Assembly (NCBI GenBank): GCA_963701775.1
Contig: CAVPBH010000018.1
Span: forward strand, 184,568 to 248,567
Source: an uncultured Chloroflexia bacterium
GTDB taxonomy: Bacteria > Chloroflexota > Anaerolineae > JAAYZQ01
Length of the DNA stretch: 64,000 nt
Direction of reading: 5' to 3'
Below the pieces are notes generated by a model that did no database searches, had not been told where the DNA came from, and saw only the letters and a list, made by a program, of their open reading frames with translations. Both the position numbers and the translations under genes were made by a program. This document shows, piece after piece, positions 8,585 through 64,000 of this stretch (positions are counted from its first letter, which is position 1; each line of letters begins with the position of its first letter).

Positions 8585-9814
8585 TTGCCCTTCCAGGATG
8601 ACTTTGGCCGCGCCATCAATTACCTGCGCGTTTCGGTCACCGACCGCTGCAACCTGCGCTGCGTCTACTGCATGCCGCCCGGCGGCGTGGACAAACAGCC
8701 GCACGAACATGTCCTCAGCTACGAGGAGATGGCCCTCGTCATCCGCGCCGCAGCCGAGACCGGCATCCGGAAGGTCCGGCTGACGGGCGGGGAGCCCCTC
8801 GTGCGCCTCGGCCTGGCCGAGTTCGTGCGGATGATCGCCGCCATCCCCGGCATCGACGACCTTTCCATGACGACGAACGCCACGCTCCTGGCCGGGCATG
8901 CCCGGGCGCTGGCCGACGCCGGCCTGAACCGCGTCAACATCAGCCTGGATACGCTCCAACCCGAACGCTTTGCCAGCATGACACGCCGGGGCAAGATCGA
9001 GGATGTCTGGGCAGGCGTCGAGGCGGCCCGGGCGGCGGGCCTCACCCCCATCAAGTTCAACGCCGTCGTGATCCGCGGCCTGAACGACGACGAGGTACCC
9101 AGCCTGGCCGAGAAGAGCTTGACCGACGGCTGGCACATGCGCTTCATCGAGTGGATGCCGATTGGCGACACAGCCGGCTGGGCGGCCGGCGGAGCGGTGC
9201 CGGTCGCCGAGATTCGCGCGACGATCGAGCAGCGCCTTGGTCCCCTGCAACCGGCCCCCGGCCCCAGGGGGAACGGCCCGGCGCGCTACTTCCGGCTGCC
9301 CGGAGCCACGGGCACCATCGGCTTCATCGGGGCGCTGAGCGAGCACTTTTGCGCGTCGTGCAACCGCCTCCGGCTCACCGCCGACGGACGCCTGCGGCCC
9401 TGTCTTCTGGCCGAGCAGGAGGTCGACCTGCGGCCCACGCTGCGGGCCGGCGGCGGCCTGGAAGCGGTCCGGCAGCTCCTGGCGCAGGCCATCCAGTCCA
9501 AGCCCATGTGCCACCACCTGGACGAGGCACGGGTGCCCCAGGGCCGCACGATGTCCCAGATCGGGGCTAGGGGCCGAGACGGCCCCACGAGGGGTATACT
9601 ATGCAGCTTTCCCACGTCGATGAATCGGGCCGGGCACGCATGGTGGACGTTGGCGCCAAGGCCGATACGGAGCGGGTGGCGATTGCCCAGGCGCGCGTCA
9701 CCCTGCTTCCCGCCACGCTGGCCCTCATCCGCACCAACGCCGCGGCCAAGGGCGACGTCCTGGCCGTGGCCCAAATCGCCGGCATCCAGGCCGCCAAGCG
9801 GACGCACGAGCTGA
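8585..9814 (+). CDS. moaA: GTP 3',8-cyclase MoaA (radical SAM); the C-terminus appears frameshifted
   Basis: Carries the [10 protein letters not shown] radical-SAM motif and is full-length MoaA-like up to ...GRTMSQIG. The ORF then runs on for ~80 aa, overlapping moaC. One extra G in the atcggggctag run (~9568) would give the canonical ...MSQIGG* ending at ~9574. Confidence 0.85.
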
Positions 9815-10086
9815 TCCCGCTCTGCCACCCTCTCCTGCTCACCCACATCTCGGTCGAGCTGGCGCCGGAGCAGTCCGGCGACGAGGCGTGGATCGACCTC
9901 AAGGCGACCGTCCGCACCACGGGCAAGACGGGCGTCGAGATGGAGGCGCTGACGGCCGTCAGCATCGCGGCCCTGACCGTCTACGACATGTGCAAGGCCG
10001 TGGACCGCGGCATGTGCATCACCGGCGTGCGCCTCGTCCACAAGAGCGGGGGCAAGAGCGGGGAATGGAACCGGGAGGAAGCATGA
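9601..10086 (+). CDS. moaC: cyclic pyranopterin monophosphate synthase MoaC
   Basis: 161 aa with MoaC family sequence throughout ([13 protein letters not shown]...HKSGGKSG). Confidence 0.9.
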
Positions 10087-10535
10087 GCCAGGAGGGACGA
10101 GTGCTCGCCGTGTGCACCAGCCAGAAGAAGGGCGTTCCGAAGCGGGACATCGGCCGGGCCGAGCTGCGCGCCGACTGGGGTATCGTGGGCGACGCCCATG
10201 CGGCCGACTGGCACCGCCAGGTCAGCCTGCTCGCCTGGGAAAGTATCGAGAAGATGCGCGCGCTGGGGCTCAACGTGCGCGCCGGCAGCTTTGCCGAGAA
10301 TATCACCACCACCGGCCTCTGCCTGGTCGATCTGCCCATCGGGACGCGGCTGCGGATCGGCACGGCGCTGGTGCAGGTGACGCAGATCGGCAAGGTCTGC
10401 CACGACAAGTGCGCCATCTACTACCAGGCAGGCGACTGCGTCATGCCCCGCGAGGGCATCTTTGTCGCCGTCCTCGAGGGGGGGATGGTGCAAGCCGGCG
10501 ACGCCGTGCAGGTGGTGCCGGTGACGGCCGATTGA
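10083..10535 (+). CDS. MOSC domain-containing protein
   Basis: ~150 aa beginning [13 protein letters not shown], with the [13 protein letters not shown] signature. The ATG at 10083 overlaps the moaC stop. The longer ORF-track version starting at 9888 is a spurious extension. Confidence 0.8.
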
Positions 10536-10549
10536 AGTAGGCCGCGAGA

Positions 10550-11266
10550 ATGAGCCGGACGGCGAGCTACTACGACCTGCGCGATGCGCTGGCCCTGCCG
10601 GGCTGCCCGGTGTGCCGCTTGGCTGCGCGCGACGCCGAGCGCTATCTCGACGGCCTGTTGTGGGAGCACGTCACGGATCCCGGCGTCCGGGCCAAGGTCC
10701 GCCGCGCGCAGGGCTTTTGCCGCGACCATGCGCGGCTTCTCGACCGGGCCGGCGCGGCGCTGGGCGTGGCGATCCTGATGCAAGACGTGCTGCGCGCCGT
10801 GCTGGAAACCCTGGAAGGCGCGCACTTCCAGGCCCCGCCAGCGCTCTCGCTTCGCCGCGCACAGGAAACGCTCGACCCCGGCCAACCCTCGGCCGCAACG
10901 GCCGAGCTGGTGGCACGCCTGGCGCCCGGAGAACCCTGCCCGGCCTGCGCCCGCGCGGGCGAGATGGAGACGGTCTACCTGGACACGCTGGTAGAGCAGT
11001 TGATGGGCGAAGAGGGACTGCTGGGCGCGTACGGGGTATCCGGCGGTCTGTGCCTTCCCCATCTCCGGCTGGCACTGGTCCGGCTGCGCGAGCCGGCCGT
11101 CTTTGAGGCACTGGTGAGTGCACAGCGCGACATCTGGGGACGCCTAGAGGCCGACCTGCGCGAGCAGATCCGGAAGAACGACTACCGGTTCCGCGACGAG
11201 CCGTGGGGCGACGAAAGCAATGCCTGGCTGCGGGGGCTGGCTGCCGTGAGCGGAGGGCTGCCCTAG
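10550..11266 (+). CDS. hypothetical protein with paired CPxC...C-x2-H motifs
   Basis: 238-aa ORF in the Moco operon orientation. It has two CPVC/CPAC motifs with downstream Cys/His (CRDH, CLPH), suggesting a metal-binding protein. No family could be assigned from sequence alone. Confidence 0.5.
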   Translation: MSRTASYYDLRDALALPGCPVCRLAARDAERYLDGLLWEHVTDPGVRAKVRRAQGFCRDHARLLDRAGAALGVAILMQDVLRAVLETLEGAHFQAPPALSLRRAQETLDPGQPSAATAELVARLAPGEPCPACARAGEMETVYLDTLVEQLMGEEGLLGAYGVSGGLCLPHLRLALVRLREPAVFEALVSAQRDIWGRLEADLREQIRKNDYRFRDEPWGDESNAWLRGLAAVSGGLP

Positions 11267-14095: not shown

Positions 14096-14988
14096 ATGAA
14101 CAGGAATAAGAGGAGCGATTCGGCGTGGCCCAACTCGAAGGAGGCGCCGTCCTGGCGGCCGGGCAGCACGCCACAGCGGACGCCGCCGCGCCGCTCCTCG
14201 CCCGGCTGCGGAAGACGGCTGCGTGCCTGGTGGGACGATTCCGGCTCCATGGCCGGGCTGATCGCGCTCGGCGTGTCGATGCCGGTGAGTATCGTCCTGT
14301 GCATCGTGCTCTGGATCGCCCACAGCCGCACGAACTGGCTGGTGGGGCTGACCCTGACGCTCTTTGGGCTGCCAATTCTCGTCTACGGGCTGATGCTGAC
14401 GCGGCGCCGCAACCGGCAGGTCGCAGGGGAGGGGGGCTGCATGATGCTGGGGGGCATCCTGCTCGGAGTGGCCGCCCTCGTCTTTGCCTTCTTCGTCTTC
14501 TTCAAGCCGGAGCACCGCATCGCTGAGATGCTCATGCTCAGCTTCCAGCGGGGCGTCAAGAACAAGGACTTTACAGTCGAGCTCGCCGTGGAGCCGGCGG
14601 AATACCGGGTGGGGGAGCGCGGCGCCGTGACGGCGACATCACCAACCGGAGCGACGTCACGGTCGAGTTCTCGGAGCTGGTGCTGGGGATGCCGAAGGAC
14701 TTTTTCGACGGCTTTGTGGTGGACTTTCCGACGACGCCGCCCCACCTGGAGTACAACGAGCAGTCGATCGGCGGGGACACGATCGTGCTCTCCGGCGAGG
14801 GGACGCGCATCGCGCCCGGGGAGACTTTTACGGCGCGGGTGGAGATCGTGGCCAACCTGCCGGGCAACTACAGCGGCAAGTTCACCTTCGTGCCGGTGTT
14901 CTCCGAGGAGTCGCAGGCGCTCGGGGCGGTGCAGGTGAAGGAGAAGCTGACGGTGACGATCCTGCCGGAGCGCCGGGACAGGCCGTAA
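14096..14988 (+). CDS. membrane protein, frameshifted at ~14630
   Basis: The ATG at 14096 has an AAAGGAGG RBS. The N-terminal half has 3-4 TM helices in one frame up to ...GERGAVT. The product then continues coherently only in the +1 frame (DITNRSDVTVEFSELVLGMPKDFFDGF...) to the stop at 14988. Confidence 0.5.
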
Positions 14989-15146: not shown

Positions 15147-15398
15147 ATGGCAAGCCGACAGATCGTAATAGACATTCCAGAGAAGGTGCTTCTCGCCGAA
15201 AAGACAGACGAGAGCGCCTTCGCGCGCGAGCTCCGCGTCCTGGCGGCCGTGAAGTTGTATGAGCTGGGCCGCCTCTCGTCCGGTCGCGCTGCCGAGCTCG
15301 CCGGGATGTCGCGTGTAGCCTTTCTGACGACTCTCGGGCAGTATAGGGTTTTTCCCCTCGAGCCGGAGCTCTTGGACCTGGAGCGGCGGCGTGCCTGA
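15147..15398 (+). CDS. UPF0175-family antitoxin
   Basis: 83 aa (IDIPEKVLLAEKTDESAFARELRVLAAVKLYELGRLSSGRAAELAGMSRVAFL), matching the UPF0175 fold that pairs with DUF3368 toxins. Its stop overlaps the start of the next gene. Confidence 0.75.
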   Translation: MASRQIVIDIPEKVLLAEKTDESAFARELRVLAAVKLYELGRLSSGRAAELAGMSRVAFLTTLGQYRVFPLEPELLDLERRRA

Positions 15399-15894
15399 CG
15401 CCATCTGCAATACCTCGCCGCTACTCTATCTCTATCGTGCCGGGGCGCTGGATTGGTTGCCGCAGTTCTTCGGCCAGATCTGGCTGCCTGGAGCCGTCGT
15501 CAGAGAACTGCGAGAAGGCCGATTGCGAGGCTTCAGCGTGCCTGACCCCGACCAGTATGCATGGCTTACCGTGGTGGAGCCTCAGGCTGTGCCTTCTGAG
15601 TGGCTGGCGCTGGACTTGGGTCCAGGGGAACTTGGTGCCATGGCATTGGCGCTCGAGGAACCCGGACCGAATCGTCCTACTCGACGACGCCCTGGCACGG
15701 CGGGTTGCACAGGCAGCCGGCCTGGAGGTGTGGGGCACCCTCCGGATCCTTCTGAGGCCAAAGCCGCCGGCCTGACGGAGAGACTGAGTCCCCTGCTCGA
15801 CCGGTTGGCAGACGCAGGTATGTGGATCTCCGCCAGCGTCCGGCAACGTGTGCTGGCCCTGGCCGGAGAGTCAGACGAGCCGCCTAGCGGCTAG
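15391..15894 (+). CDS. DUF3368 (PIN-like) toxin carrying two compensating frameshifts
   Basis: The N-terminus (CNTSPLLYLYRAGALDWLPQFF...VVRELREG) and C-terminus (AKAAGLTERLSPLLDRLADAGMWISASVRQRVLALAGE) match DUF3368. The conserved middle (RIVLLDDALARRVAQAAGLEVWGTLRILL) is readable only in another frame between ~15660 and ~15753. Confidence 0.7.
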   Translation: MPDAICNTSPLLYLYRAGALDWLPQFFGQIWLPGAVVRELREGRLRGFSVPDPDQYAWLTVVEPQAVPSEWLALDLGPGELGAMALALEEPGPNRPTRRRPGTAGCTGSRPGGVGHPPDPSEAKAAGLTERLSPLLDRLADAGMWISASVRQRVLALAGESDEPPSG

Positions 15895-15960: not shown

Positions 15961-16412
15961 ATGGACAAGACAAACACGCTCACCAAGATCCTGGCGTTCG
16001 TTGGGACCGCGCTGGTGTGGTTCCCGATCGTGGCGCCGTTCCTGTTGTCTGCGGCTCGTCTCATCCAGGCACGCAGGTTCCTGTTCGACTACCTGATGCC
16101 GGCCGAGTTGTTCCCAGCGGTCCTGGTGGGTGGGGGCTGCTGCTGTGGGCTGCACTGCGGGCTCGCTCGCGCCGAGGGCTGATCGCCTGGGCGCTGGGCG
16201 CGGCCGTTGCCTTCCTGGCCGGCTGCATGGGCCTGGCCGAGGTATCGGGGATGGCGTCGGGCGCGATCGAGGCGAGCGGTCCGTGGTTTGTGCTGGTCGT
16301 GGCGGGGCTCATCGCCTACTGCCTGGCGGTGGTGGTGCTGGGCGTCGGCGGGGTGCTTCTGTTGCGGGACCTGTTCCGGGCAAGCCGCGTGGAGGGTGGC
16401 GGCGCCGGTTGA
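15961..16412 (+). CDS. small membrane protein, frameshift at a G-run near 16135
   Basis: MDKTNTLTKILAFVGTALVWFPIVAPFLL... continues as hydrophobic helices only in the overlapping frame (LLLWAALRARSRRGLIAWALGAAVAFLAG...). The junction lies at tgggggctg. Confidence 0.45.
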
Positions 16413-38413: not shown

Positions 38414-38488
38414 GGTTCCTCCTCCGGGCGGGGTGATCCCCGCCCCTGCGGCAGCCGGTCCGTCAAGGGCCGGCAAGCCGCAACCCGG

Positions 38489-45936: not shown

Positions 45937-46170
45937 TCATGCAGCGCTCTCACGGGGTTCCGGAAGATCTCCCCCGCCGGCGAAGGCCTCCTCTTCCAGG
46001 AACTGTAGCAGCCCTGCCAGGCCGGCAAAGCACCGCTCATCGCCGCTCTGGACGCTGTGCACAAGGACGCGCCAAGGCGCACCCGGAGACTCGCGCCACA
46101 GGCGCAGCAGATAGCTGCGGTAGCGTTCTGGATCGGCGATGGGAACGGCGATTCGCTCGGTCTCACCCAT
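45937..46170 (-). CDS. small hypothetical protein (77 aa)
   Basis: MGETERIAVPIADPERYRSYLLRLWRESPGAPWRVLVHSVQSGDERCFAGLAGLLQFLEEEA... with a GGAAGAGA RBS. It is divergent from the regulator gene. The evidence is weak. Confidence 0.35.
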   Translation of the reverse strand: MGETERIAVPIADPERYRSYLLRLWRESPGAPWRVLVHSVQSGDERCFAGLAGLLQFLEEEAFAGGGDLPEPRESAA

Positions 46171-46427
46171 ACGTCTCTTCCATGACCCACTGGGTACGCT
46201 GTGCGAATTGTTCTGAAGGCTGCAGCAAAGCTGTCGCGACGCGTGGTGCGACAGCGTGGATCATACTCCATCGCTGTGACGAAAGTGTGACGGGACCACT
46301 GAGACGGATGAGAACGTTGAGGACACTGAGAGGTGGGAAGGATGGTGCGCCGGCGTTGACGAAATCTTGGAACTGTAGTACGATGCGGATGTACAAGACC
46401 CCGCAGTGCTGGGGAGAAAGGGCTTTA

Positions 46428-49400
46428 ATGCAGGCACGGCTGAAAATCCGCCTGCTGGGGACCTTTGACGTGGTCCTCGACGGCGCGCCCCTGGCGGGCT
46501 TCCGGTCGGCCAAGGTGCGCGCGCTGCTTGCCTACCTGGCGGTCGAGACGGACGCCCTTCATCGTCGCGAGGCCCTGGCAACCCTCCTGTGGGGCGAATT
46601 TCCCGAGCGCGACGCCCAGCGCAGCCTGAGCCAAGCGCTAAGCAACCTGCGCGGCCTGCTTGCGCCCCTCTCGCCGGAAGCGGCACCGCCGGGGCCGGGT
46701 ATGGAAACCCGACCTACGGCCTCTGCTCCTTCGGAGCCGGTGCTGGAGATCACCGGCCAGAACGTTCGCCTGCGCGTGGAGCCGGAGCGGGCGTGGGTGG
46801 ACGTGCACGCCTTTGACGCACTCCTGGGGGCTGCCGGCCTGCGCGGCGCCGCGGCGCCGGAAGGCTCCGCCCAGGCCAGGCTGCTTGCCCAGGCGATCGA
46901 TTTGTATCGCGGTCCCTTCCTTTCCGGCCTGTCGCTGCCCGACAGCCCGGAATTCGAGGAGTGGCGGCTACTCCAGCAGGAGCAGCACCACCAGGCCGCG
47001 CTGCTCGCCCTGGAGCGGATGGTCGACCACCACCTGGCGGAGGGGCACACGGACGAGGTAGAGCGTTTTGCCCGCCGGCAGCTCGGGCTCGAACCCTGGA
47101 ACGAGGTCGCCCACCAGAGCCTGATGCTTGCCCTGGCGCTCAGCGGCCGGCGGGGGGCGGCCCTCCGCCAATTTGAGACCTGCCGCAGCGTCCTGGCCGA
47201 TGAGCTGGGCGTCGAGCCCTCGGCCGAGACCGAAGCGCTGCGCAGGCAAATCCGCGATGGCACCTGGAACGATCTGGCGCCGCCTGCCCGCAGCCCGGCT
47301 GGCGCCTTCTCTGGCCTGTCTCCTTCTGCCTTTGTGTCCCGGGAGCGGGAGACGGCGCGGCTCGAGCACTTCCTCGACCTGGCGCTCGCCGGGCAGGGAC
47401 ACGTCGTCCTGGTCACCGGCGAAGCGGGGACGGGCAAGACGGCACTCCTGGCGCACTTTGCCAAGCGCGCGGTGACGGCCCACCGGAGATTGGTAGCGAC
47501 CGCCGGGCGATGTAGCGCCTTCGCCGGCCTGGGCGATCCACTCCTGCCCTTTCGCGAGATCCTCCAGGGGCTCTGCTGCGAGGCATCGAGTGTTTCTGCC
47601 GGCTCCTCCCAGAACCCGGACCACATGCGCCGGCTGTGGGCGCTCTTTCCTTCGGCAGCCCAGGCTCTGGTTGAGCACGGCCCCGACCTGGTCGGCCGCT
47701 TTGTGCCGGTCGAAGATCTGGAGGCCCGCGCCGCGACCCTGGCCCCGCCCGGGGCGTCCTGGCTGGCGCGGCTTGCCGAGCTGAAAGTGGCACGGTCAGG
47801 AGACCGGCCACAGCGAGCTGCGCTCCAGGAAGCGCTCTTTGACCAGGTGACGCGCGTCCTGCTGACCATCGCCCGCAGGCAGCCCCTGCTACTACTCATC
47901 GACGACCTACAGTGGGCCGATGCGGCCTCTCTCAGCCTACTATTTCACCTGGGGCGGCAGCTTACCGCCTCCCGCATCCTGGTCGTCGGCGCCTACCGGC
48001 CGAGCGAGGCAGTGCAAGAAGACCCTGGCAAAGACCCTACGGGTCTTCCGAGACCCCTAGGGTCTATGGCCCACGAGTTTGCCCGGCAGTGGGGCGACAT
48101 CCGCATCGACCTGGATCGGGCAGGGGGCCGGCGCTTCGTCGATGCGCTGCTGGATGCCGAGCCAAACCGGCTCGGAGAGGCCTTTCGCGAGAGGCTGACC
48201 CGCCATACCGGCGGCCACCCCCTCTTCACAGTCGAGATGCTGCGCGCCTTCCAGGAGCGGGGCGAGCTGGTGCTCGACGAGGAGGAGCGCTGGGTCGAGG
48301 GGCCGGCGCCGCACGGCGAGGGGTTGCCGGCGCGCGTCGAGGCGGTCATCGGCGAGCGCATCGACCGGCTGCCGCGCGCCTGGCGCCGGGTCCTGGAAGC
48401 GGCCTGCATCGAGGGGGAGACGTTCAGCGCCGAGGTGGCTGCCCGCGCCACCGGCACAGAGCCGGCCTGGGTGCGCGAGCTGCTGAGCGGCCCGCTCTCT
48501 GCTGAGAGCCGGCTGGTGCAGCCGCTCGGGGTGCAGCTCCTGGGGGACACGGGAGGGGCTCTGTCGCGCTATCGCTTTGGCCACGCCCTCTTCCACGAAT
48601 ACCTGTGCTGCCACATGGACGCAGTGCAGCGGTCGAGGCTGCACGCCGAGGTGGGCGGCGCCCTCGAGACACTCTGCCGGGGCGAGCAGGTCGCGCTCGC
48701 CGAGGTCAGCCCGCAACTGGCGCACCACTACGAGGAGGCTGGGCTGGCCGGCCAGGCGGCGCACTTCCTGCTCTTGGCCGGGCGCCGCGCCACACGCCTG
48801 ACGGCCTACTCGGAGGCAATCTCCCTCTATCAGCGTGGGCTGGCCCAACTGGAACAGGTGCCTGGGTCAGACGAGCGTAGCCGGCGGCAGATCGAGCTCT
48901 ACTTGGCGCTCGACACCCCCCTCTACGCCGCACGCGGCTGGGGCGCGCCCGAGCGGGCCCAGCTCCTCCACCATGCACACCGCCTAGCCCGCCGCCTGGA
49001 TGAGCCCGAGCCGCTCATGCGCGTCCTACTCCTGCTGACTGACATCCACACCTGGCTGGGGGAAGACCTCCAGGCGCTACAGTGCGCCGAGGAGCTGCTC
49101 TGCCGGGCGGAGGTCGAGCAGGACACATTCTACCTGGCAGCCGGCCACCTGGCCGCCGGGCTGAGCAATCTCCCCCAGGGGCACCTGGCCGCAGGGCGCA
49201 TTCACCTGGAGAGGGCTTGGGCGCTCGGGTCACCCGGCGCAGGGCAGCCTGCCGCCCAGGGGCCGGCGGAGCAGCGGCCGGTGCGCCCGCCGCTGCTGCC
49301 GGTTGCCGACACGGACCTGGCCGCTACCGCGCTCACCTGGCTGAGCACTACCCTGTTTTTGATGGGCTACGGCGACCAGGCCCTCTCCGCCAGCCGGCGT

Positions 49401-50090
49401 GCCCTGGCCCGCGTGGACGAGCTGGCCGATCCCCTCACCAGTCTGCTGGTGGTCATGGTAGCCGGCGCCGCCTTCCACGCGATACGCGGCGATGCGACCG
49501 CTTCGCAGGCGGAATCGGAGCGGCTTCTCGCCGTGACCGATCGCTACGGCCTGCCGCTCGGCAAGGGTTGGGCCGTCTTCTTCCGGGGTTGGGCACAGGT
49601 GGACCGGGGTGAAGAGACGGACGGCCTGGCGGCCATGCGCACCAGCCTGAAGATCGTGCATGGGGGAGGCGCGCAGGCCTTCCGGCCGATGCTCCACTGC
49701 CTCATGGCCGAGGCGCTCTTGCGTGCCGGCCAAGCCGGAGAGGGGCTGGAGGTGCTGGCCGACGTCGGCCCCCACGCCGGGCGGGTGTTCGAGGCCGAGG
49801 TGCACCGGCTGCGCGGCGAGCTGCTGCTGAAGGCAGACCATGGACCACAGACCATAGACCGGGGTCCGTCGTCCGCCGCCGAAGCCGAGGTCTGCTTCCG
49901 GCGCGCGCTGGAGGTGGCCCGCCGGCAGGAAACTCACCTCTTCGAGCTGCGCGCGGCGATGAGCCTGGCGCGGCTGTGGCAGGCGCAGGGCCGGTCGGAC
50001 GAGGCACGCGAGCTGGTGGCCGGCGCCTATGCCTGGTTCTCCGAGGGGTTCGATCTGCGCGACCTGGCGCAGGCGCGGGCGATGCTCTAG
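46428..50090 (+). CDS. SARP-family (AfsR-like) transcriptional regulator: OmpR-type wHTH, BTAD, AAA ATPase and TPR domains
   Basis: MQARLKIRLLGTFDVVLDG... winged-helix plus BTAD domain, then Walker A GEAGTGKTALL, a long TPR region and the C-terminal AYAWFSEGFDLRDLAQARAML. GGGGAGAAAGGG RBS. The ORF-track start at 45699 is a spurious 243-aa extension. Confidence 0.8.
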   Translation: MQARLKIRLLGTFDVVLDGAPLAGFRSAKVRALLAYLAVETDALHRREALATLLWGEFPERDAQRSLSQALSNLRGLLAPLSPEAAPPGPGMETRPTASAPSEPVLEITGQNVRLRVEPERAWVDVHAFDALLGAAGLRGAAAPEGSAQARLLAQAIDLYRGPFLSGLSLPDSPEFEEWRLLQQEQHHQAALLALERMVDHHLAEGHTDEVERFARRQLGLEPWNEVAHQSLMLALALSGRRGAALRQFETCRSVLADELGVEPSAETEALRRQIRDGTWNDLAPPARSPAGAFSGLSPSAFVSRERETARLEHFLDLALAGQGHVVLVTGEAGTGKTALLAHFAKRAVTAHRRLVATAGRCSAFAGLGDPLLPFREILQGLCCEASSVSAGSSQNPDHMRRLWALFPSAAQALVEHGPDLVGRFVPVEDLEARAATLAPPGASWLARLAELKVARSGDRPQRAALQEALFDQVTRVLLTIARRQPLLLLIDDLQWADAASLSLLFHLGRQLTASRILVVGAYRPSEAVQEDPGKDPTGLPRPLGSMAHEFARQWGDIRIDLDRAGGRRFVDALLDAEPNRLGEAFRERLTRHTGGHPLFTVEMLRAFQERGELVLDEEERWVEGPAPHGEGLPARVEAVIGERIDRLPRAWRRVLEAACIEGETFSAEVAARATGTEPAWVRELLSGPLSAESRLVQPLGVQLLGDTGGALSRYRFGHALFHEYLCCHMDAVQRSRLHAEVGGALETLCRGEQVALAEVSPQLAHHYEEAGLAGQAAHFLLLAGRRATRLTAYSEAISLYQRGLAQLEQVPGSDERSRRQIELYLALDTPLYAARGWGAPERAQLLHHAHRLARRLDEPEPLMRVLLLLTDIHTWLGEDLQALQCAEELLCRAEVEQDTFYLAAGHLAAGLSNLPQGHLAAGRIHLERAWALGSPGAGQPAAQGPAEQRPVRPPLLPVADTDLAATALTWLSTTLFLMGYGDQALSASRRALARVDELADPLTSLLVVMVAGAAFHAIRGDATASQAESERLLAVTDRYGLPLGKGWAVFFRGWAQVDRGEETDGLAAMRTSLKIVHGGGAQAFRPMLHCLMAEALLRAGQAGEGLEVLADVGPHAGRVFEAEVHRLRGELLLKADHGPQTIDRGPSSAAEAEVCFRRALEVARRQETHLFELRAAMSLARLWQAQGRSDEARELVAGAYAWFSEGFDLRDLAQARAML

Positions 50091-50137
50091 GCAGAAGCCG
50101 GCGCACAGAAGGTGCGTCGCATCTGATTCCGGCCCTG

Positions 50138-53433: not shown

Positions 53434-54546
53434 CTAGCGCAGCGGCGGCGCGTACATCAAGCCCCCATCCTTCCAGAGCTTGTTCAGCCCCCGATCCAGT
53501 GTGAAGGAGAGGCCCTCCGGTCCCATGTAGCGATCATAGATCTCGCCATAGTTGCCCATGGCCTTGATCACGTTGGCGGCAAAGTCGACCGACAGACCCA
53601 GGTCCTCCTGGCCAAAGGTGCCCTCGACGCCGAGCAGCCGCCTGATCTCGATCGACTCGCTGGCCTTCATCTCGTCGACGTTCTGCGAGGTGACGCCCAG
53701 CTCTTCGGCATTCACGAGCACCCAGGCGGTGAGCTTGACCACATCGAACCACTTGTCGTCGCCGTGCGGCACGGCAGGCGTCAGCGGCTCCTTCGACATG
53801 GTCACGTCCATGATGACGTGATCGTCCGGGTTGGCAAAGCCGCTGCGGACGGCTGCAAGCTGCGACTTGTCGCTGGTGGCGGCGTCACAGCGACCATCCT
53901 CGTAGGCGCTGTATACCGCCGACGTGTCCTCGAATGTGACGGCCGTGAACTCCAGGCCCAACTGGCGGAAGGCATCGGCCAGGTTCTTCTCGGTGGTGGT
54001 GCCGGTCGTCACACAGACGGTCGCGCCGGCCAGGTCCTCCAGCGTGGTAAAGCCGGTGTCCTTGCGCACCATCATCCCCTGGCCGTCATAGTAGGTAACC
54101 ATAGTGAAGTTACCCCACTGGATGTCACGGGTCGAGGTCCACGTCATGTTGCGGGCGACAATATCCACCTCGGCGTTCTGCAAGGCCGGCCCACGGTCGG
54201 CGGCCTGGATAGCAACAAACTCCACGGCCTCGGGGTTGTTGAAAACGGCCACGGCCACCGCCCGGCAGAAGTCGATGTCAAAGCCCAGGTTCTTGCCGTT
54301 GGCGTCCAGGTAGCCAAAGCCGGGCAGGCTGGTGTGGACGCCGCACACCACCTTACCCCGCGCACGGACGGCGTCCAGGATGCCGCCCGTAGCGGGAAGT
54401 GTCCCCGCCGCCGGACACTCTGGGCAATCCGGGCACTGGGCACAGGGGGTGGGTACGGGGCATTCGGTCTCGGCTCCGCAGGCGCTCAGCAGCAGCGCGC
54501 CCACGGTCAACAGGGTCAACAGCACGAATAAGGATCTGCGGTTCAC
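53434..54546 (-). CDS. amino acid ABC transporter substrate-binding lipoprotein
   Basis: GTG at 54546 with an AAGGAGGGAG RBS. Signal peptide with LLLSAC lipobox, a Cys-rich linker (CPVPTPCAQCPDCPECP), then a type-2 periplasmic binding-protein domain. Confidence 0.8.
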   Translation of the reverse strand: MNRRSLFVLLTLLTVGALLLSACGAETECPVPTPCAQCPDCPECPAAGTLPATGGILDAVRARGKVVCGVHTSLPGFGYLDANGKNLGFDIDFCRAVAVAVFNNPEAVEFVAIQAADRGPALQNAEVDIVARNMTWTSTRDIQWGNFTMVTYYDGQGMMVRKDTGFTTLEDLAGATVCVTTGTTTEKNLADAFRQLGLEFTAVTFEDTSAVYSAYEDGRCDAATSDKSQLAAVRSGFANPDDHVIMDVTMSKEPLTPAVPHGDDKWFDVVKLTAWVLVNAEELGVTSQNVDEMKASESIEIRRLLGVEGTFGQEDLGLSVDFAANVIKAMGNYGEIYDRYMGPEGLSFTLDRGLNKLWKDGGLMYAPPLR

Positions 54547-54847: not shown

Positions 54848-56563
54848 ATGCACAGCATCAACTCCGCCTTCTTCGTCCTCGCCCTGCTCCTGGGCGCCGC
54901 GTCTGCCGCATCCGGCCCGGTCCAAGCGCCTCCCCTGCCGCCGGCGCCCGACTGGACGGCCGAGGGACAGCAGGACTGGGCCCACTTTGGCCTGGCTGCC
55001 GGTAGAGCCGGCGACGTGAACGCCGACGGCTACGGTGACCTAATCGCAGGGGCGCACCTGTACGACGGCGGGCAGACGGACGAGGGCGCCGCCTTCCTCT
55101 ACCTGGGCTCGCCGGCCGGCCTGGGCGCCCAGCCCGCCTGGAGTGCCGAGGGTGACCAGGCGTATGCCTACTTCGGCCGGGCGGTGAGCGACGCCGGCGA
55201 TGTGGACGGGGATGGCTACGACGACGTCCTGGTGGGTGCGTATGGCTACGAGCGAGCGGCGAGCGAGGAGGGGCGCATCTATCTCTACCGGGGGACGGAC
55301 GGAGGCCTAACGCCTCAGCCCACCTGGAGCGCCGATGGGGGCCAGGCCTACGCCAACCTCGGCTGGTCGGTTTCGGGTGCCGGAGACCTTAACGGCGACG
55401 GCTACGACGACCTGGCGGCAGGCGCGCCCTTCTACGACAACGGTCAGGCCGACGAGGGGATAGCGTGGGTTTTCTACGGTTCACCCTCGGGGCCCTCCCC
55501 GGCGCACGGCTGGCAGGGCGAGAGCGACCAGGAGGGCGCTTTCTTTGGATTTTCGCTCGCCGGCGCCGGCGATGTGAACGGAGACGGCTACGACGACCTG
55601 CTCGTCGGCGCCTACGGCTACGACAACCCGCTGGAGCGCGAGGGGCGTGTCTACCTCTTCTACGGCTCGGCCGGCGGCCTCTCCCCGGCCGCCGGCTGGA
55701 CGGCCGAGTCAGGCCAGGCAGGCTCCTGCTACGGCCTGGCCGTGGCTGCCGCCGGCGACCTCAACGCCGACGGCTACGACGACCTGGCCGTGGGCGCCTA
55801 TCTCTACGACGGCACCCTCCAGGACGAGGGCGCGGTGCTTGTCTACCTGGGCTCGGCCTCCGGCCCCTCGGCAGAGCCAGATTGGATTGCCTACGGCGGC
55901 CAGGCATCGGCCTTCCTGGGATTTGCCCTCGGCGCCGCCGGCGATTTGGACGGGGACGGCTTTGGCGACCTGGCCGCCGGCGCGCACGCCTACGACGACG
56001 GGCAGATGGACGAGGGCCGGGCGCTGGTTTGGCTCGGATCGGCCGCCGGGCTGCGGTCAGAGCCTGACTGGGCGGCAGCCAGCGACCAGGAAGGAGCGCA
56101 TTTTGGCCGGCCGGTGCGCTCCGCCGGCGACGTGAACGGCGACGGCCGGGCCGACCTGGTCGCCGGAGCATCGAGCTGGGACGGTGGACAGGTGGACGAG
56201 GGGGCGGTGTTCGTCTACTACGGCGTGCCCGGCGAAACACTGCACCTGTCGCTCCTGAAGCTGGGCTGGAAGCCCGGACCAAAGCCCGGGACCTACGTCC
56301 TCAGCGCAGCAGCAGCGGTCCACGACGGGGACCACGCGCCGGCACCTGGCGTGCGCGTGGCGGGCACGTGGACGGCGCCCGACGGCGCGATCACGGCTCA
56401 AACCGCGCTGACCGACGCCCGGGGCCAGGTCAGGTTCCTCCTGAAGGCACGGCTGGCCGGAGCCTACCAGTTCTGCGTCACAGGCATGGCGAAGGAGGGC
56501 TACGCCGACAATCCGGCGAACGACCACAGCCCCCGCTGCAGGACGGTACAGGTGGGGGAATAG
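54848..56563 (+). CDS. secreted FG-GAP (integrin-alpha-like) repeat protein with the shared C-terminal domain
   Basis: Signal peptide MHSINSAFFVLALLLGAASAASG. About 9 FG-GAP repeats (GDVNADGYGDLIAGA..., GDVDGDGYDDVLVGA...). The C-terminus is RGQVRFLLKARLAGAYQFCVTGMAKEGYADNPANDHSPRCRTVQVGE. Confidence 0.75.
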   Translation: MHSINSAFFVLALLLGAASAASGPVQAPPLPPAPDWTAEGQQDWAHFGLAAGRAGDVNADGYGDLIAGAHLYDGGQTDEGAAFLYLGSPAGLGAQPAWSAEGDQAYAYFGRAVSDAGDVDGDGYDDVLVGAYGYERAASEEGRIYLYRGTDGGLTPQPTWSADGGQAYANLGWSVSGAGDLNGDGYDDLAAGAPFYDNGQADEGIAWVFYGSPSGPSPAHGWQGESDQEGAFFGFSLAGAGDVNGDGYDDLLVGAYGYDNPLEREGRVYLFYGSAGGLSPAAGWTAESGQAGSCYGLAVAAAGDLNADGYDDLAVGAYLYDGTLQDEGAVLVYLGSASGPSAEPDWIAYGGQASAFLGFALGAAGDLDGDGFGDLAAGAHAYDDGQMDEGRALVWLGSAAGLRSEPDWAAASDQEGAHFGRPVRSAGDVNGDGRADLVAGASSWDGGQVDEGAVFVYYGVPGETLHLSLLKLGWKPGPKPGTYVLSAAAAVHDGDHAPAPGVRVAGTWTAPDGAITAQTALTDARGQVRFLLKARLAGAYQFCVTGMAKEGYADNPANDHSPRCRTVQVGE

Positions 56564-56608: not shown

Positions 56609-57258
56609 CTACGGCACGGTGATCGCGGCGCAGTCGCTCGGGTTCAGGCTGGGATCGTAGGTGAACCCGGCCTTGGTCACGTCGGTCACGCACAGGATGT
56701 ACGTTCCGGACTCCCAGTAGTTCAGCTTGAAAGCGGCAAAGCCCTGCGGGTCCTTGGTGACCCTCACGTCAGTGTAGATCGAGCCACCAGGTGTCGTCCA
56801 CTCGACATACACGGAAGCACCAGGAACCCGTGGTCCGCTCATCTCGCGGATTTGGACCTAACCGCGGACGGATACGGTGGGGATCGGGGTGTCTGGGGCA
56901 CCTTCGATTGGGAGAGCGACGTAGGACATCTTGAACTGGCTCGCGTAGATGAGGTTCTTGCTGCCCGACAGGCGGAAGGCCCAGTCGTGCTGGGACACTC
57001 CCCAGGTGGATCCTGACTGGATCGAGGTCCAGACGCCGGGGAACCCGAATCCGCCGCCAGGGTTGATCACCTGGCCGACGTAGCCGTTGGCCGTAGTCGA
57101 CAACTGCCGCCCGTACTGGCCGTAGCAAGGCTAAAATCCAGCTGCGGGTAGAACACGAGCCACCAGGTGCCCGGCGGCACTCGATCTTGCGCGGCGGTCA
57201 TGGCCACCGAAGACAGGGCCACGAGGAGGATAAGCAAAGAAACAGCCACTTTTCGCAT
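56609..57258 (-). CDS. small secreted protein with a half SQCF-type domain and the shared C-terminal domain; two frameshifts
   Basis: The ATG at 57258 has an AAAGGAG RBS. Signal peptide MRKVAVSLLILLVALSSVAMTAA. The product reads coherently across three frames (..PPGTWWLVFYPQLDFS.. / ..ANGYVGQVINPGGGFGFPGVW.. / ..GTYILCVTDVTKAGFTYDPSLNPSDCAAITVP*). Confidence 0.5.
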
Positions 57259-57593: not shown

Positions 57594-60570
57594 ATGCGAG
57601 TCCCGAAAGCGTTCTATCTGCTCTTCTGCCTGGCCCTTGTTTCGGGCGTGATGCCCCTGGCAGCAACCGCCCAGACGGCGGCGCCGATTGAGCAAGAGCT
57701 CTTGACCCGGCTGGCTGCCGAAGGCACCGCCAACTTTTTTGTCAAGATGGCCGTCGAGGCCGACCTGAGCGCCGCGTACGGCATGGACTGGGATGCCCGC
57801 GGCGCGTATGTATGGAAGGCGCTGAACGAAGTGGCCCAGGCCACCCAAGCGCCGGTCCTCGACTACTGCCGGAGGCACGGCCTGACCTGCCGGTCCTTCC
57901 TCACCACCAATGCCGTCCTGGTGCGCGCCGGGACGGCCGACCAAGCCCAGGACCTGGCCCGCCTGCCGGGCGTGGCCTACCTCCGGCTCGAGCGCATCCT
58001 CCAGATCCCCGACCCGGTGGCCGGCGCCCCCGGCGTCAACGGTTTTGTCTCGAGCAGTGCAGCCCCAACGGCCACCACCGACTGGGGCATCACAGACACC
58101 AAGGCCGACCAGGTGTGGGCTCTGGGAGTGCGCGGCCAGGGCATCAAGGTGGCCAACATCGACACCGGCGTGCAGTACAACCATCCCGCCCTCTTCCCCA
58201 ACTATGGCTGCCAGGCCACGCCGACCGATCCCTCCTGCTGGTATGACCCCAGCAACACCTGCGGCGGCAGCGTGTGCGACAACAGCGGCCACGGCACCCA
58301 TACGATGGGGACGATGGCCGCCAAGGACGATGCCGGCCTGACCTACATCGCCGGGATGGCACCGGATGCCACCTGGATCGCCTGCAAGGGCTGCGAGTCC
58401 AGCTCGTGCTCGGAAGGCTCGCTTAACGCCTGCGCCGACTGGACCCTGGCTCCTGGCGGCAACACGGCCAACCGGCCGGCGGTCGTCAACAACTCCTGGG
58501 GCGGCGGCAGCGGCGACACCTGGTACCTGGCCAAGGTCCAGGCCTGGCGTGCGGCCGGCGTCTTCCCCGCCTTTTCCGCGGGCAACAGCGGCCCGAGTTG
58601 CAGCACCTCCAACAGCCCCGGCGACTACCAGGAGAGCTTTGCCAGTGCGGCGCACGACAGCAGCCGCACCATCGCCAGCTTCTCCAGCCGCGGGCCAAGC
58701 ACCTTTGGCCACGACCCCTATACCAAGCCGAACATCAGCGCCCCCGGCGTGAGCATCTGCTCGACCGTGCCGACCAACTCCTGGAGCTGCGGCTACTCCG
58801 GCACGTCGATGGCCAGCCCGCACACCGCCGGCGCCGTCGCGCTGCTATGGCAGGCCTGCCCCGACCTGGTAGGCCAGATGGACCTGACTTTCACGACGCT
58901 CCAGAACTACTCCAACACACCCCCTGCCGGCAACTGCCTCGCCCCGCCCGACGGGCAGGGCAACTACACCTACGGCTACGGCTACCTGGACACCCTCGCC
59001 GCCGTCCAGTCGTGCATGGGCGGCCTCGAGTTCGGAAGCCTCCAGGGCTACGTCTATGACCAGGACGCCGCCCCGATCGAAGGCGCCACCGTCAGCGCGG
59101 TGCCCACCATCCAGGGCGGCCAGATCCAGGCTACGACCGATCCGACCGGCTTTTACACGATGCAGCTCGTGCCCGGCACCTACACGGCCACCGCCTCCAA
59201 GAGCGGCTACACCACGCAGTCGGTGCCCGGCATCGCCATCGTCGCCGACACCGTCAGCAGCCAGGACTTTGGCCTCACTTACCTCGGCGCCTGGACCAGC
59301 TACGGCACGCTGTGCTTCGACTGGACTCGCTTCGACGGTGAGTACTACGACGGCAAGGTTTACTTCCTGGGCGGCCGCTCCGGCACCAGCACCGACGGCA
59401 CGATCTACCGCTTTGACCCGGTGACCGGCGCCTGCGCCGCAACCGGTGCCACTATGCCCGTGCCCATCTCCAACTACACCATTGCCCTGCTGAACGACGG
59501 CACGGCCGACCTGCTGTGCACCTTCGGCGGGCGCGACAGCGCCGGCGCCCAAACGCTGGCGGTGCAGTGCTACAACCCCGTGGCCAACACTGCAACCAAC
59601 AAGGGCAACCTGCCCGCGGCGTTCACCGGCTTTGCGCCAGGCGGCGTGGAAGCAGCCAACAACAAGGCCTACATCTTTGGCGGCTTCCGCAACACCAGCG
59701 CGCCCTATCACATGACGGCCACCTACGAGTATGACCCCGTCGCCAATACCTTCACCGCCAAGGGCAACCTGGCGCTGGGCCGCGGCTACATCATCACCGC
59801 CGTGGTCGACGGCAAGGTGTACGCCTTCGGCGGGGACGTGTTTGACGGCACCAACCTCAACGCCCAGACGATCGCCGAGGTCTTTGACCCCGCGGCCGGA
59901 ACCTGGAACGACGCGGCCGTGGCCGACCTGCCGGCGGCCTCCGGCGAGGGCCGCGGCTTCGGCTTCGACACAGGCTCCGGCTACGTCTATGAGAAGCGGG
60001 TGATCCTGGCCGGCGGTGGCCTGTGGCCCAGCAACAGCCTGGAGGTCACCTCCTACGACGTGGCCACCAACAGCTACGACACGTCGTTCCCCGATCTCGA
60101 ATGCCGCGCGCCGCGACCACGCCAGCTTCTTCGTGCCGGGGAATCCCGGGCGCATGTGGGTGGTGGGCGGCTGGTACGGAGCCGACACCCCACCCTACGC
60201 CCCGGCGGAGTACTATGATGTGCCCGTGTTGGCGCCTCTGCTCAAGCTCCACCTTTTCCGCCTGCGCACGAGCTGGCAGGCCGGCCCCAACCCCGGCACC
60301 TACAAGGTCCTGGCCAACGGGACCGTCCATGACCAGGCCCACGCCGTGATCGCCGGCGTGACCGTGCATGGGGATTGGACCTACCCGAACGGCCGGGTGG
60401 TGCACCGCACCGGGATGACCAACGCGGTGGGGCGGTTCAAGCTGTCGATCCCCTCGAAGCAGGCCGGCACCTACCAGTTCTGCGTGACCGACATGGTCCG
60501 GGCCGGGTATGCCTACGATCCCGGCTCGAACCATGTGCCCGCCTGCCAGACACTGGCGGTTGGGCCGTAA
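57594..60570 (+). CDS. secreted subtilisin-like S8 serine protease with CarboxypepD_reg-like, Kelch beta-propeller and shared C-terminal domains; frameshift at ~60100
   Basis: Signal peptide with I9-like propeptide. Catalytic triad motifs [17 protein letters not shown] and GTSMASPH. Kelch-type repeats ([23 protein letters not shown]). After ...TSFPDL the protein continues in the +1 frame ([14 protein letters not shown]...[34 protein letters not shown]). Confidence 0.8.
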
Positions 60571-61468: not shown

Positions 61469-61501
61469 CCGGCCCCGGCCAGACTGTGTGGCCGGGGCCG
61501 G
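61469..61501 (+). terminator. perfect 12-bp GC hairpin after the tRNA (CCGGCCCCGGCC...GGCCGGGGCCGG)
   Basis: Seen directly in the sequence. There is no T-tract, so it could equally be a processing or REP-like element. Confidence 0.3.
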
Positions 61502-61531
61502 CGTACACTACCAAGGGAAAGGAGCGCCCCC

Positions 61532-61999
61532 ATGCAAGTGCAGGAGATTATGACCCGCGATGTGATCACGGTCCGGACCGAAACCAAGATCCCCGCCGTG
61601 GTCCGGCTTTTCCGCGAGCACAGCATCAGTGGCATGCCCGTCGTCGATGCCGAGGGCAACCTGATCGGCATGGTCACCGAGCTGGACCTGATCGCGCGCC
61701 ATGCCCGGCCCCACATCCCGAGTTATGTTGCCTTCCTCGACTCGATCATCTACCTGGGCAGCACCAAGCGCTACCACGAGTCGATGCGCCACATCCTGGC
61801 CACTGCCGCCGGCGAGCTGATGACCCCCGAGGTCGTCAGCGTCAGCCCCGAGATGGACGTCCAGGACCTGGCCGATCTGATGGTCGAGCGCGGCGCTAAC
61901 CCGGTCGCCGTCGTCGACGCCGACAAGCACCTGGTCGGCATCGTCAGCCACACCGACCTCCTCAAGATGATCGAGCAGGCCGAGGCCGCCGAGCCATGA
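61532..61999 (+). CDS. CBS domain-pair protein
   Basis: 155 aa with two CBS motifs (IMTRDVITV...GMPVVD and LMTPEVVSV...NPVAVVD). Confidence 0.8.
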   Translation: MQVQEIMTRDVITVRTETKIPAVVRLFREHSISGMPVVDAEGNLIGMVTELDLIARHARPHIPSYVAFLDSIIYLGSTKRYHESMRHILATAAGELMTPEVVSVSPEMDVQDLADLMVERGANPVAVVDADKHLVGIVSHTDLLKMIEQAEAAEP

Positions 62000-64000
62000 T
62001 CCCGATCGAGCTGCGCGTCCGCAACTTTATGTGCTATCGCGACGACGTGCCCCCCCTCAGCTTCGAGGGCATCCACCTCGCCTGCCTGACCGGCAGCAAC
62101 GGCCACGGCAAGTCGGCCCTGCTCGACGCCATCACCTGGGCGGTCTGGGGCAAGTCCCGCGCCAAGCACGACGACGAGCTGATCCACCAGGGCCAGGTCG
62201 AGATGGAGGTGGAGTACACCTTCGAGCTGGGCGGCACCGTCTACCGCATCCTGCGCAAGCGCGAAAGCAAGAAGCCGGGGCGCACGCTGCTCGACCTCCA
62301 GGTGCAGCATTCGGCTGGGTTCCGCTCCATCGCCGGCACGACGATCCGCGCCACCCAGTCGGCCATCGACAAGCTGCTGCGCATGGACTATGATACCTTC
62401 ACCAACTCGGCTTTCCTCCTCCAGGGCAAGGCCGACGCCTTTACCACGCGCACGCCGGCCGAGCGCAAGCAGGTCTTGGCCGACATCCTCGGCCTGGGCC
62501 TCTACGACAGCTACGAGCAGCGCGCCAAGGACCAGGGCCGCGACGTGGAGCGGCAACTGGACCAACTGGACGCCCGGCTGAAGGGGATCGACGTCGAGCT
62601 GGCCCGCCGGCCGGAGCACGAGGCGGCCCTCGCCCGCGCCGGTGCGCGCGTCGCCGAGCTGAGCGCCGCCGTGAAAGAGACAGAGGGCACCCTTCGCACC
62701 CTACAGGCGGAGCTGCACGCACTCGAGCGGCAGCAGGTAGCGCTCCAGGGCCTGGAGCGCCGGCTGGCGCAGACCGAGCGGGAGCTGGGCGAAATCGCGG
62801 CCAAGGTGAGCGAGCGCCAGGCCAGGCTCGAATCCTACGAGCAGGCGCTGGCCGAACGCGGCGAGATCGAGCAGGGCTTTGCCGCCCTGGCCGCGGCCCG
62901 CCGGGAAGAGGCCGCCTGGAACGAGCGCCTGGGCAGTGCCCGCCGGGTCGAATCCGGGCAGCGCGACGCCGAGCGTGCCGTGGCCGCCGCCCGGCAGCAA
63001 TTGGAGTTGGGTGCCGGCCGGCTCGGGGAGCGCATCCGCAGCCTGGAAAACCACTCCGGCGAGGCCGCGCGTCTCGAACGGGACCTCGGGGAAGCGGGCG
63101 CCCGGCTGGAGTACCTGGCGCGGCGCCAGCAAGAGCGCGACGCGGCCCGCGAGCGCATCCAGGCACTGGCGGAGGAGACGGCCGGCCTGAAGGCCACGAA
63201 CGAGCAGCTTCGCGCCGAGATGCAGGACCTCCGGGAGAAGCTGGATTTGCTCGAGGCCGAAGTCGGGCCAGGCGGCCTGCCCCCTGTGCGGGCAGACCGC
63301 TCACGGGCGAGCACCGGCTGGAGCTGGCGGAAGAGTACCTGGCGAGGGGCAAGGGCCAACGCGAGCAATACGATGCCAACGACGCGCGCCTGCGCGCCTG
63401 GGCTGCCGAGACGGCGCAGCTCAAGGCGCAGCTCCAGCCACTGGAGCGCGATCTCGCCGGCCAGGCCGCCGCCCAGGGCCGGCATGCCCAGCTCGTGCAT
63501 GCGCTCCAGGAGGCGCAGAAGGCGGCGGCCGAGCTTGCGCCGGCCCAGGAGGAACATGGCGCCCTGCAGCGACGGGTCCAATCGGGCGACTATGCACTCG
63601 CCGAGCAGCAGGAGCTGGCCCGCCTGGCGGCCGAGCTGAAGGCGATTGGCTACGACGCAAGAGCCCACGGCAGGACGCGCGACGAGGCCGCGACCCTTGC
63701 CCCCTTCGAAGAGCGCCACCAGCAGCTCCTGCTCGCCGGCCAGCAGGCCGAGGCCGAGAAGGCGGCACTGGAGGAACTGCGCGGCCGCCACGAGCGCTGG
63801 ACGGAGACCCTCGCCGGCGAGAGGGAACAGCGCGATGCCCTCGCGGCCGAGGTCGCCGGATTGCCCGCGCTGAGCCAGCAGGTGCGCGTCAAAGCGGCCG
63901 AGCTGGAAGAGTGGCAGAAGGAATCCCACCAGGCACAGCAGGCATGGGGTGCGGCCCGCCAGCAGGTGACCTACGCCGAGCAGATGGCAGAAGAGCGCGT
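61996..64000 (+). CDS. sbcC: DNA repair exonuclease SbcC (Rad50-like ATPase), 5' part; two 1-nt insertions around the zinc hook
   Basis: N-terminal LTGSNGHGKSALLDAI Walker A motif with a long coiled coil. Around 63270-63300 the zinc hook CPLCGQT reads only in the +1 frame. The downstream coiled coil (HRLELAEEYLARGKGQREQYDAN...) reads in the +2 frame to the window end. Confidence 0.8.

Follow-up and report, generated by a model that had tools for sequence, protein, structure and literature searches.

The window analysed here, 64,000 nucleotides (nt) of ordinary Anaerolineae (Chloroflexota) chromosome with a composition of about 67% G+C, carries 20 one-base insertions or deletions (indels; 13 insertions and 7 deletions) and one nonsense codon, distributed over about 13 genes. 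This corresponds to about one indel per 3 kb and leaves about a quarter of the genes in the window broken or fused. The indels are present in the deposited record and in none of the relatives found, and one-base edits repair every affected gene. Their cause appears technical rather than mutational, and they are probably consensus errors of the deposited assembly, not biology. As such, they would reflect no real biological feature, and their value lies in a warning about the gene calls of the public record, which are untrustworthy if the indels are consensus errors. About a quarter of the window genes are mis-called there, and the faulty sequences are already cluster representatives in protein databases. 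Functional, completeness or pseudogene analyses of this genome need frameshift-aware gene calling or a polished assembly.

Single-base lesions and their repair

Reading frames were followed with a phase plot of G+C content at third codon positions (GC3) and a codon-usage Viterbi frame tracker, and the sites were then checked one by one against homologues. The nearest relatives of the window are Anaerolineae metagenome-assembled genomes (MAGs) and metagenome contigs. Among the genome collection, the closest is the Illumina-type MAG L003 (83–88% nt identity), which is syntenic with window 8.6–28.4 kb. Four short-read contigs, L092–L095 (JGI Ga0316616 and Ga0316622, ENA k141), align at 94–95% nt identity, and further relatives are L096 (94.6%), L090 (94%), L099 (~94%), L097 and L098 (88–90%) and L088 (84%). 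The Logan relative L086, with an intact adhesin of 1352 amino acids (aa), was used as a protein homologue. A first concatenated protein query returned only SbcC homologues at ≤50% identity, which were used for the sbcC sites, and a second query composed of junction segments gave no matches.

At nearly all positions that an earlier note, made from the sequence alone, had listed as about 17 single-base frameshifts, both plot and tracker revealed a change of frame on the same strand with no stop codon. Fifteen of these 17 sites are true one-base frameshifts, and the claim was an understatement, with five more sites found: 1978, 20894, 22398 and the compensated pair 43035–43040/43081–43088. Some listed positions moved: 9568 to 9563–9566, 14630 to 14633, 32195 to 32181, 43395 to 43413–43424, 44005 to ~43967, 44915 to 44911–44915, 57100 to 57125, and 60100 to 60098. 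Two entries proved not to be frameshifts. The one at 56850 is an in-frame TAG codon (56858–56860), and at 23595 L003 has the identical G5 run and frame relation, with linker lengths that differ by multiples of 3. The resulting lesions are as follows (HSP, high-scoring segment pair; ORF, open reading frame).

1972–1980 (site 1978), minus strand: +1 insertion in the gene of an energy-coupling factor (ECF)-type ATP-binding cassette (ABC) ATPase (3273 to 1816); relative GC-CG, window GCGCG
9563–9566, plus strand: −1 deletion at the end of moaA; G4 in the window, G5 in L092–L095, and L003 agrees
14630–14634 (site 14633), plus strand: −1 deletion (T missing) in the hypothetical membrane protein gene 14096–14988
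15660–15670, plus strand: +1 insertion in the DUF3368/PIN-like toxin gene 15391–15894; first of a compensated pair, based on frame reading
15752–15755, plus strand: −1 deletion in the DUF3368/PIN-like toxin gene; second of the compensated pair
16132–16136, plus strand: −1 deletion in the small membrane protein gene ~15961–16412; G5 in the window, G6 in L003
20892–20896 (site 20894), plus strand: +1 insertion in the LplA-DUF116 fusion gene 19759–21332
20971, plus strand: +1 insertion (A) in the LplA-DUF116 fusion gene 19759–21332, relative to L003
22397–22399 (site 22398), plus strand: +1 insertion (C) inside the TAG stop of the FAD/geranylgeranyl-reductase (GGR)-like gene; in-frame fusion with the next radical S-adenosylmethionine (SAM) gene, giving a 709-aa ORF
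32179–32182 (site 32181), plus strand: +1 insertion (extra base) in the old-yellow-enzyme (OYE) gene OYE1, 31552–32734
36577–36586, minus strand: −1 deletion in the PKD-domain surface protein gene (38413 to 36042); G4 run on the plus strand
44909–44915, minus strand: +1 insertion in the adhesin gene (45838 to 40625), based on L086 HSPs and frame reading
43963–43971 (site ~43967), minus strand: +1 insertion in the adhesin gene; L086 HSPs begin at 43967
43413–43424, minus strand: +1 insertion in the adhesin gene, in or beside a plus-strand C5 run; an L086 HSP ends at 43419
43081–43088, minus strand: +1 insertion in the adhesin gene; first of a hidden compensated pair, internal evidence only
43034–43040, minus strand: −1 deletion in the adhesin gene; second of the hidden compensated pair, internal evidence only
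56858–56860, minus strand: nonsense TAG, not a frameshift, in the small secreted-protein gene (57258 to 56609); AAG (K) in L088
57122–57126 (site 57125), minus strand: −1 deletion in the small secreted-protein gene (57258 to 56609); DNA gap at 57125 against L088
60097–60099 (site 60098), plus strand: +1 insertion in the subtilase-Kelch gene 57594–60570
63264–63270 (site 63268), plus strand: +1 insertion in sbcC, directly before the CxxC zinc hook
63294–63297 (site 63297), plus strand: +1 insertion in sbcC, directly after the CxxC zinc hook

When the tracker was rerun after the 20 edits, each same-strand frame change coincided with a stop codon, except for a weak one at ~23609. Comparison with relatives, one of the checks that the earlier note had asked for, showed that the one-base edits restore full-length proteins colinear with their homologues. 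The corrected subtilase aligns without gaps over 991 of 991 aa at 88% identity and the corrected ATPase over 485 of 485 aa at 96%. LplA-DUF116 gives one HSP of 522 aa (94% identity), and the hypothetical membrane protein measures 297 vs 296 aa in its homologue.

At several sites the lesion is the sole gap in a long DNA alignment. This holds for 1978 (3172 nt against L096; three cluster mates of 485 aa vs a truncated product of 444 aa), for 22398 (2144 nt against L097 and L098, which read ...GCT-AGGAGG...), and for 60098 within the subtilase coding sequence against L088 (intact homologue P0242, 991 aa). Likewise, 9563–9566 is the sole gap in the coding stretch 8425–11078 for three of the four relatives L092–L095, and one added G gives moaA its canonical C-terminus, ...MSQIGG followed by a stop. 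At 14633, the alignment to P0278, an intact homologue of 296 aa, moves from frame 2 to frame 1, and the JGI contig L099 has the T (GTGACGG-CGAC in the window against GTGACGGTCGAC). The 208-aa ORF of L003 at 16136 corresponds to frames 1 and 3 in the window, with a DNA gap at 16136. The 548-aa LplA-DUF116 ORF of L003 is spread over frames 1, 2 and 3 in the window only and occupies a single frame in four of four relatives. The extra base at 32181 is missing from both the paralogue OYE2 and L090, and its removal raises the Pfam Oxidored_FMN score of OYE1 from 151 to 179 bits. After correction, the DUF3368/PIN protein matches annotated DUF3368 genes along residues 1–160 without a break (≥80% of the query is covered by 22 plasmid records), and its DUF3368 score increases from 32.7 bits (model 10–46) to 49.1 bits (model 1–46); searches of NCBIfam and PDB with the toxin were uninformative.

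For the surface proteins, the evidence is drawn from protein alignments and repeated motifs. At 36577–36586 the PKD motif carries on in the other frame, and at 36578–36584 the matches to the L086 adhesin change frame, from −1 to −3. Residues 1049–1151 of the same adhesin align in frame −1 down to 44915, and residues 1152–1232 in frame −2 from 44913. Correction at ~43967 increases the BACON_2 Pfam match across the junction from 17.5 to 33.1 bits, and at 43413–43424 the BACON-type motif IGNSG..DLIW continues in the other frame. Between the two sites of the hidden pair, 16 residues match paralogous modules of the same protein in the shifted frame only (GRDVTLDLLLATGSAL). SbcC homologues (P0004, P0007, P0019 and others) align in frame 1 to ~63255, in frame 2 over 63257–63295, and in frame 3 from ~63276–63294 on.

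The small secreted-protein gene (57258 to 56609) differs in character. Residues 1–28 and 175–198 of the 354-aa L088 homologue align in frame −2 and residues 178–354 in frame −1. In addition, 438 nt corresponding to residues 29–174 are missing in frame at 57176/57177, and the signal peptide is joined directly to the downstream segment. Across the TAG codon the frame is unchanged, and the alignments to the paralogous C-terminal domains and to the L086 adhesin run through it without a break. Due to this combination of frameshift, nonsense codon and 438-nt deletion, the gene looks like a real pseudogene.

A different anomaly is found close to moaA, where TGA replaces CCC at 8582–8584 (three adjacent substitutions) inside the region that gene callers assign to MoaA in relatives. 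Considered as a nonsense mutation, it was discarded, since the codon probably lies in the 5′ untranslated region, with a TTG start at 8585.

The lesions in the public record and in relatives

Exact look-ups showed that the public record contains identical copies of the broken proteins that the window yields, and that all of them come from the same NCBI/ENA contig (256,590 nt). The lesions thus belong to the deposited assembly and not to the preparation of the window. The products concerned are listed below.

Subtilase: 874 aa; intact relatives 991 aa
SbcC: 547 aa, cut off; homologues extend to ~1,000 aa, and the gene continues beyond the window edge
ABC ATPase: 444 aa, as against 485 aa in intact relatives
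Adhesin pieces: 925 and 362 aa, both from a single gene
PKD protein: 620 aa, truncated
LplA: 505 aa, with an out-of-frame tail
FAD-radical SAM: 709 aa, an artificial fusion

The fragmented gene calls that the earlier note had predicted are thereby found in the public record as truncations, adhesin pieces and an artificial fusion. Cluster mates from other assemblies are intact, including the 991-aa subtilase, three 485-aa ATPases and stand-alone radical SAM proteins of 350 aa. A second assembly of the same strain is not found in the collection; each window product occurs on one contig only, and the clusters hold one member from it. Exact-protein look-ups with MoaC, with a GS ORF called from ATG 24553 and with P0121 gave no match.

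Among relatives, sites 1978, 9565, 14633 and 32181 are intact in short-read metagenome contigs at 94–96% nt identity, sites 16136, 20894, 20971, 22398, 57125 and 60098 in relatives at 83–90%, and sites 36580, 44911 and 63268/63296 in more distant homologues. The coding alignments around 1978 and 9565, in which the frameshift is the sole gap, span 2.1–3.2 kb. At testable sites, the lesion count is 0 in relatives vs about 14 in the window.

Origin of the indels

The proposed errors would not stem from the organism; they would have entered during sequencing or when the consensus was called, either because the platform is prone to indels or because the assembly had low coverage or too little polishing. 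At least one substitution, which creates a stop codon, adds to the 13 apparent insertions and 7 apparent deletions. Each indel shifts the reading frame, so that gene calling yields proteins that are truncated or carry out-of-frame tails, genes that are split, and one artificial fusion. Indel errors are reported to fragment genes in long-read assemblies (PMC12007338, PMC8812927, PMC9262707), and the verified G-run deletions (G5 to G4 and G6 to G5) belong to a class reported for long-read assemblies of GC-rich genomes (PMC8574707). The indels are also clustered, with four pairs ≤90 nt apart vs 0.5 expected (P = 0.0015), which fits local low-quality stretches.

The competing view that the window holds genuine, very recent pseudogenes, e.g. 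because mismatch repair was lost, the population passed through a bottleneck, or selection on accessory genes for surface proteins and defence was relaxed, is considered unlikely, albeit with several observations on its side that weigh against consensus errors. The lesions are concentrated in few genes, with five hits in the adhesin and two each in the toxin, LplA and sbcC, whereas several genes of 3–4 kb have none and long stretches (45–57 kb) are untouched; such a distribution is expected of real pseudogenes as well. Most hit genes are dispensable (adhesins, secreted protease, toxin, OYE paralogue). The earlier note had described essential-looking features as affected. The hits on moaA, the lplA-like gene, sbcC, the ECF ATPase, the adhesins and the toxin are indeed there, but “essential-looking” was an overstatement for genes that many bacteria can do without. 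In two of the four close indel pairs the frame is restored, the 57258–56609 gene combines three kinds of lesion, and OYE2, which ends at a transposase, lacks a further 105 nt. The sequence context of the indels is a further point against consensus errors. The earlier note had placed several of them in G/C homopolymers, which is true for only 3–6 sites; 4–6 of the 20 lie in runs ≥4 (~1.2 expected), and most lesions are insertions outside runs. Of the 135 G/C runs ≥5 in the window, only about 3% are hit, and residual long-read errors are mostly homopolymer errors (PMC8574707, PMC8812927). The insertion-rich profile matches no single platform neatly.

Still, real pseudogenes would require about a quarter of the genes to be broken in a free-living, large-genome member of the Anaerolineae, and all 20 events would have to postdate the 4–6% divergence from intact relatives, none of which shows a lesion of this kind. 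Neither an expansion of insertion sequences (IS; one transposase in 64 kb) nor a reduced coding density is seen. The lesion spectrum is lopsided, with 20 one-base indels vs one nonsense codon and, as the only structural lesions, the 438-nt deletion and the IS-truncated OYE2. Verified insertions do not duplicate the neighbouring base (GC-CG to GCGCG at 1978 and 32181, CT-AG to CTCAG, CT-GA to CTCGA, C-G to CAG); they are not slippage products and are unusual for natural +1 mutations. Any such pseudogenes would also have to be too young to show decay. The ratio of nonsynonymous to synonymous substitution rates (dN/dS) downstream of the shift, in the corrected frame, is 0.07 over 185 codons of OYE1 and 0.25 over 158 codons of the subtilase, compared to 0.0–0.07 for intact control genes and 0.13–0.38 for the upstream parts of broken genes; the value of 0.5 for the ATPase tail stems from only five changes. 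Segments between paired shifts still encode the ancestral peptide. Apart from the 57258–56609 gene, selection downstream of the lesions thus does not appear relaxed. If the indels were real nonetheless, at least 20 frameshifts per 64 kb would have been gained within less than about 5% divergence, by a hypermutator or at the earliest stage of massive gene inactivation in a free-living bacterium, a scenario we regard as quite improbable. Non-slippage insertions and pairs that compensate each other's frame would be among these events, and the lineage would be an unusual example of abrupt gene inactivation in a free-living Chloroflexota.

Functional frameshifts, i.e. programmed ribosomal frameshifting, transcriptional slippage, or phase-variable contingency loci for surface proteins, would be in keeping with the surface or secreted nature of several products (adhesin, PKD protein, subtilase) and with the few sites in short G/C runs. 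The tracts are too short for this, however. Homopolymers at the sites reach 5 nt at most and are lacking at the majority, and none of the four G/C runs ≥7 in the window falls on a site. At the shift sites, neither a slippery motif nor a long (≥7–8 nt) homopolymer or simple sequence repeat tract was seen. Housekeeping-type genes (moaA, the ABC ATPase, the lplA-like gene, sbcC) are hit equally, up to five shifts of mixed sign would be needed in one gene, and no verified frameshift is present in any relative, where the ORFs are uninterrupted at the tested sites. The only site conserved in relatives, 23595, needs no frameshift. Functional frameshifts are accordingly given hardly any weight, and programmed frameshifting and phase variation are essentially excluded. 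An association of the sites with methylation or restriction motifs was rejected as well: GATC lies within 6 nt of 5 of the 19 sites then known (1.8 expected; P = 0.03 before correction for the 17 motifs compared), an excess that is not convincing.

Weighing these points, sequencing or assembly error, which the earlier note had favoured over natural pseudogenisation, is the best-supported reading: the lesions are absent from all relatives fetched, the edits restore the proteins, and the downstream codons are undecayed. A minority of the lesions, namely those of the 57258–56609 gene and the IS-truncated OYE2, may be real, and real decay of these two can coexist with an error-laden consensus.

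Comparison with known systems

The window resembles assemblies with gene-fragmenting indel errors from long-read or otherwise indel-prone sequencing (PMC12007338, Kastor; PMC8812927, Polypolish; PMC9262707; PMC8574707, ARAMIS), in that about one single-base indel per 3 kb truncates, splits and fuses ORFs. Homologue-guided one-base edits restore the proteins, G residues are deleted in G4–G6 runs of a GC-rich genome, more than one error per gene is possible, and short-read relatives are intact. It differs in error type. Published residual errors mostly concern homopolymer length, with mostly G/C deletions in GC-rich genomes, whereas insertions outside homopolymers prevail here. The contig, too, measures only 257 kb.

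Pseudogene-rich genomes under reductive evolution are exemplified by Mycobacterium leprae, Shigella and Sodalis. The window shares with them many interrupted genes, several lesions in some of these, a nonsense codon plus a large deletion in one, and an IS-truncated copy. In contrast to such genomes, it shows no IS expansion, no drop in coding density and almost no nonsense codons; selection after the shifts appears unrelaxed, the lesions are absent from relatives at 94–96% identity, and the organism is of an environmental, free-living type. Well-known examples of phase-variable or programmed frameshifts include dnaX, prfB and adhesin genes with homopolymer tracts. Frameshifts in surface protein genes, a few of them in G/C runs, are a common trait, but the tracts in the window are ≤5 nt, no slippery heptamer or stimulatory element is evident, the sites are not conserved, and the shifts are of mixed sign.

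The radical SAM cluster

The site at 23595, at the start of the second radical SAM gene, was rejected as a frameshift. In L097, gene calling places its start at an upstream ATG, and the linker differs from that of L003 by 66 nt and from that of L097 by 27 nt. The codon-usage tracker still switches frame near 23595/23609 after all corrections, which is probably due to the atypical composition of the N-terminal linker. This linker (23455–23592) is 66 nt longer than in L003 and contains the perfect hairpin GGTGCCCACGC-TCTGC-GTGGGCACC. Close to the other end of the gene, at ~24566, a further +1 insertion is possible about nine codons before the stop in comparison with L097; the position is at an alignment edge and the gap could be an artefact.

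A natural FAD-radical SAM fusion at 22398 was likewise discarded. Natural fusions are found only in the distant relatives L001 and L002, and every close relative covering the start has the TAG and a separate gene. In the relatives at ≥88% aa identity that cover the radical SAM start (12 proteins of 350–351 aa; two further ones are fragments that do not reach it), the protein is separate and starts at the position of fusion residue 360. The cluster as a whole (19759–24593) is kept across the Anaerolineae relatives L001–L004 and L097 and comprises the LplA-DUF116 fusion, the FAD/geranylgeranyl-reductase-like gene, a radical SAM gene and the second radical SAM gene with a BATS domain.

Gene content and further observations

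According to Pfam, the window encodes ECF and ABC transporters, moaA, moaC and a MOSC-domain gene, the DUF3368/PIN toxin, and a NACHT-TPR protein, furthermore the cluster of LplA-DUF116, FAD/GGR-like and two radical SAM genes, glutamine synthetase, an S58 peptidase and an LVIVD-repeat protein. Two OYE copies flank a DDE transposase, and PKD/BACON surface proteins, a BTAD-AAA regulator, an amino-acid ABC operon, an FG-GAP protein, the subtilase-Kelch protein, msrA, a CBS protein and sbcC complete the inventory.

The second OYE copy, OYE2 (35025–35890), is 94–97% identical to OYE1 at the DNA level. Its 5′ end is cut exactly where the ORF of the DDE transposase (33892–35025, minus strand) ends, and 105 nt are missing in frame between GATGCGCGG direct repeats. 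OYE2 appears to be a real structural pseudogene or a recombination remnant. It is part of a 16.4-kb segment (33727–50134) that is absent from the JGI contigs L090 and L091 (~96% identical), in which the amino-acid ABC operon (50134) directly abuts 33727. The segment also contains the DDE transposase, the PKD protein, a Peptidase_S74-domain protein, the 1737-aa adhesin and the BTAD-AAA regulator. It resembles an island specific to this strain or, alternatively, an assembly join made at the OYE repeat.

Next to this segment, the amino-acid ABC operon varies in L086 (~83% nt identity overall). A stretch of 173 nt (L086 9346–9518) is 95% identical to window 53615–53787 in the solute-binding-protein gene. 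As this match directly follows the equivalent of window position 50306, the alignment implies that ~3.3 kb of the operon was deleted in L086. A metagenome scan with the solute-binding protein returned another relative, L005, at 95% aa identity; its synteny ends at this gene, so that it covers none of the lesion sites.

Finally, a C-terminal domain of ~90–110 aa, ending in ...GTY..CVTDV...G..YDP..N...C.T.TVP*, is common to five secreted proteins of the window and to proteins of the relatives. It is found at the following positions.

36045–36310: PKD protein
40628–40970: adhesin
56240–56554: FG-GAP protein
56612–56960: small 57258 gene
60286–60561: subtilase-Kelch protein

The domain gives only weak Big_1 and CarboxypepD_reg matches in Pfam and may be a lineage-specific sorting or anchoring domain.

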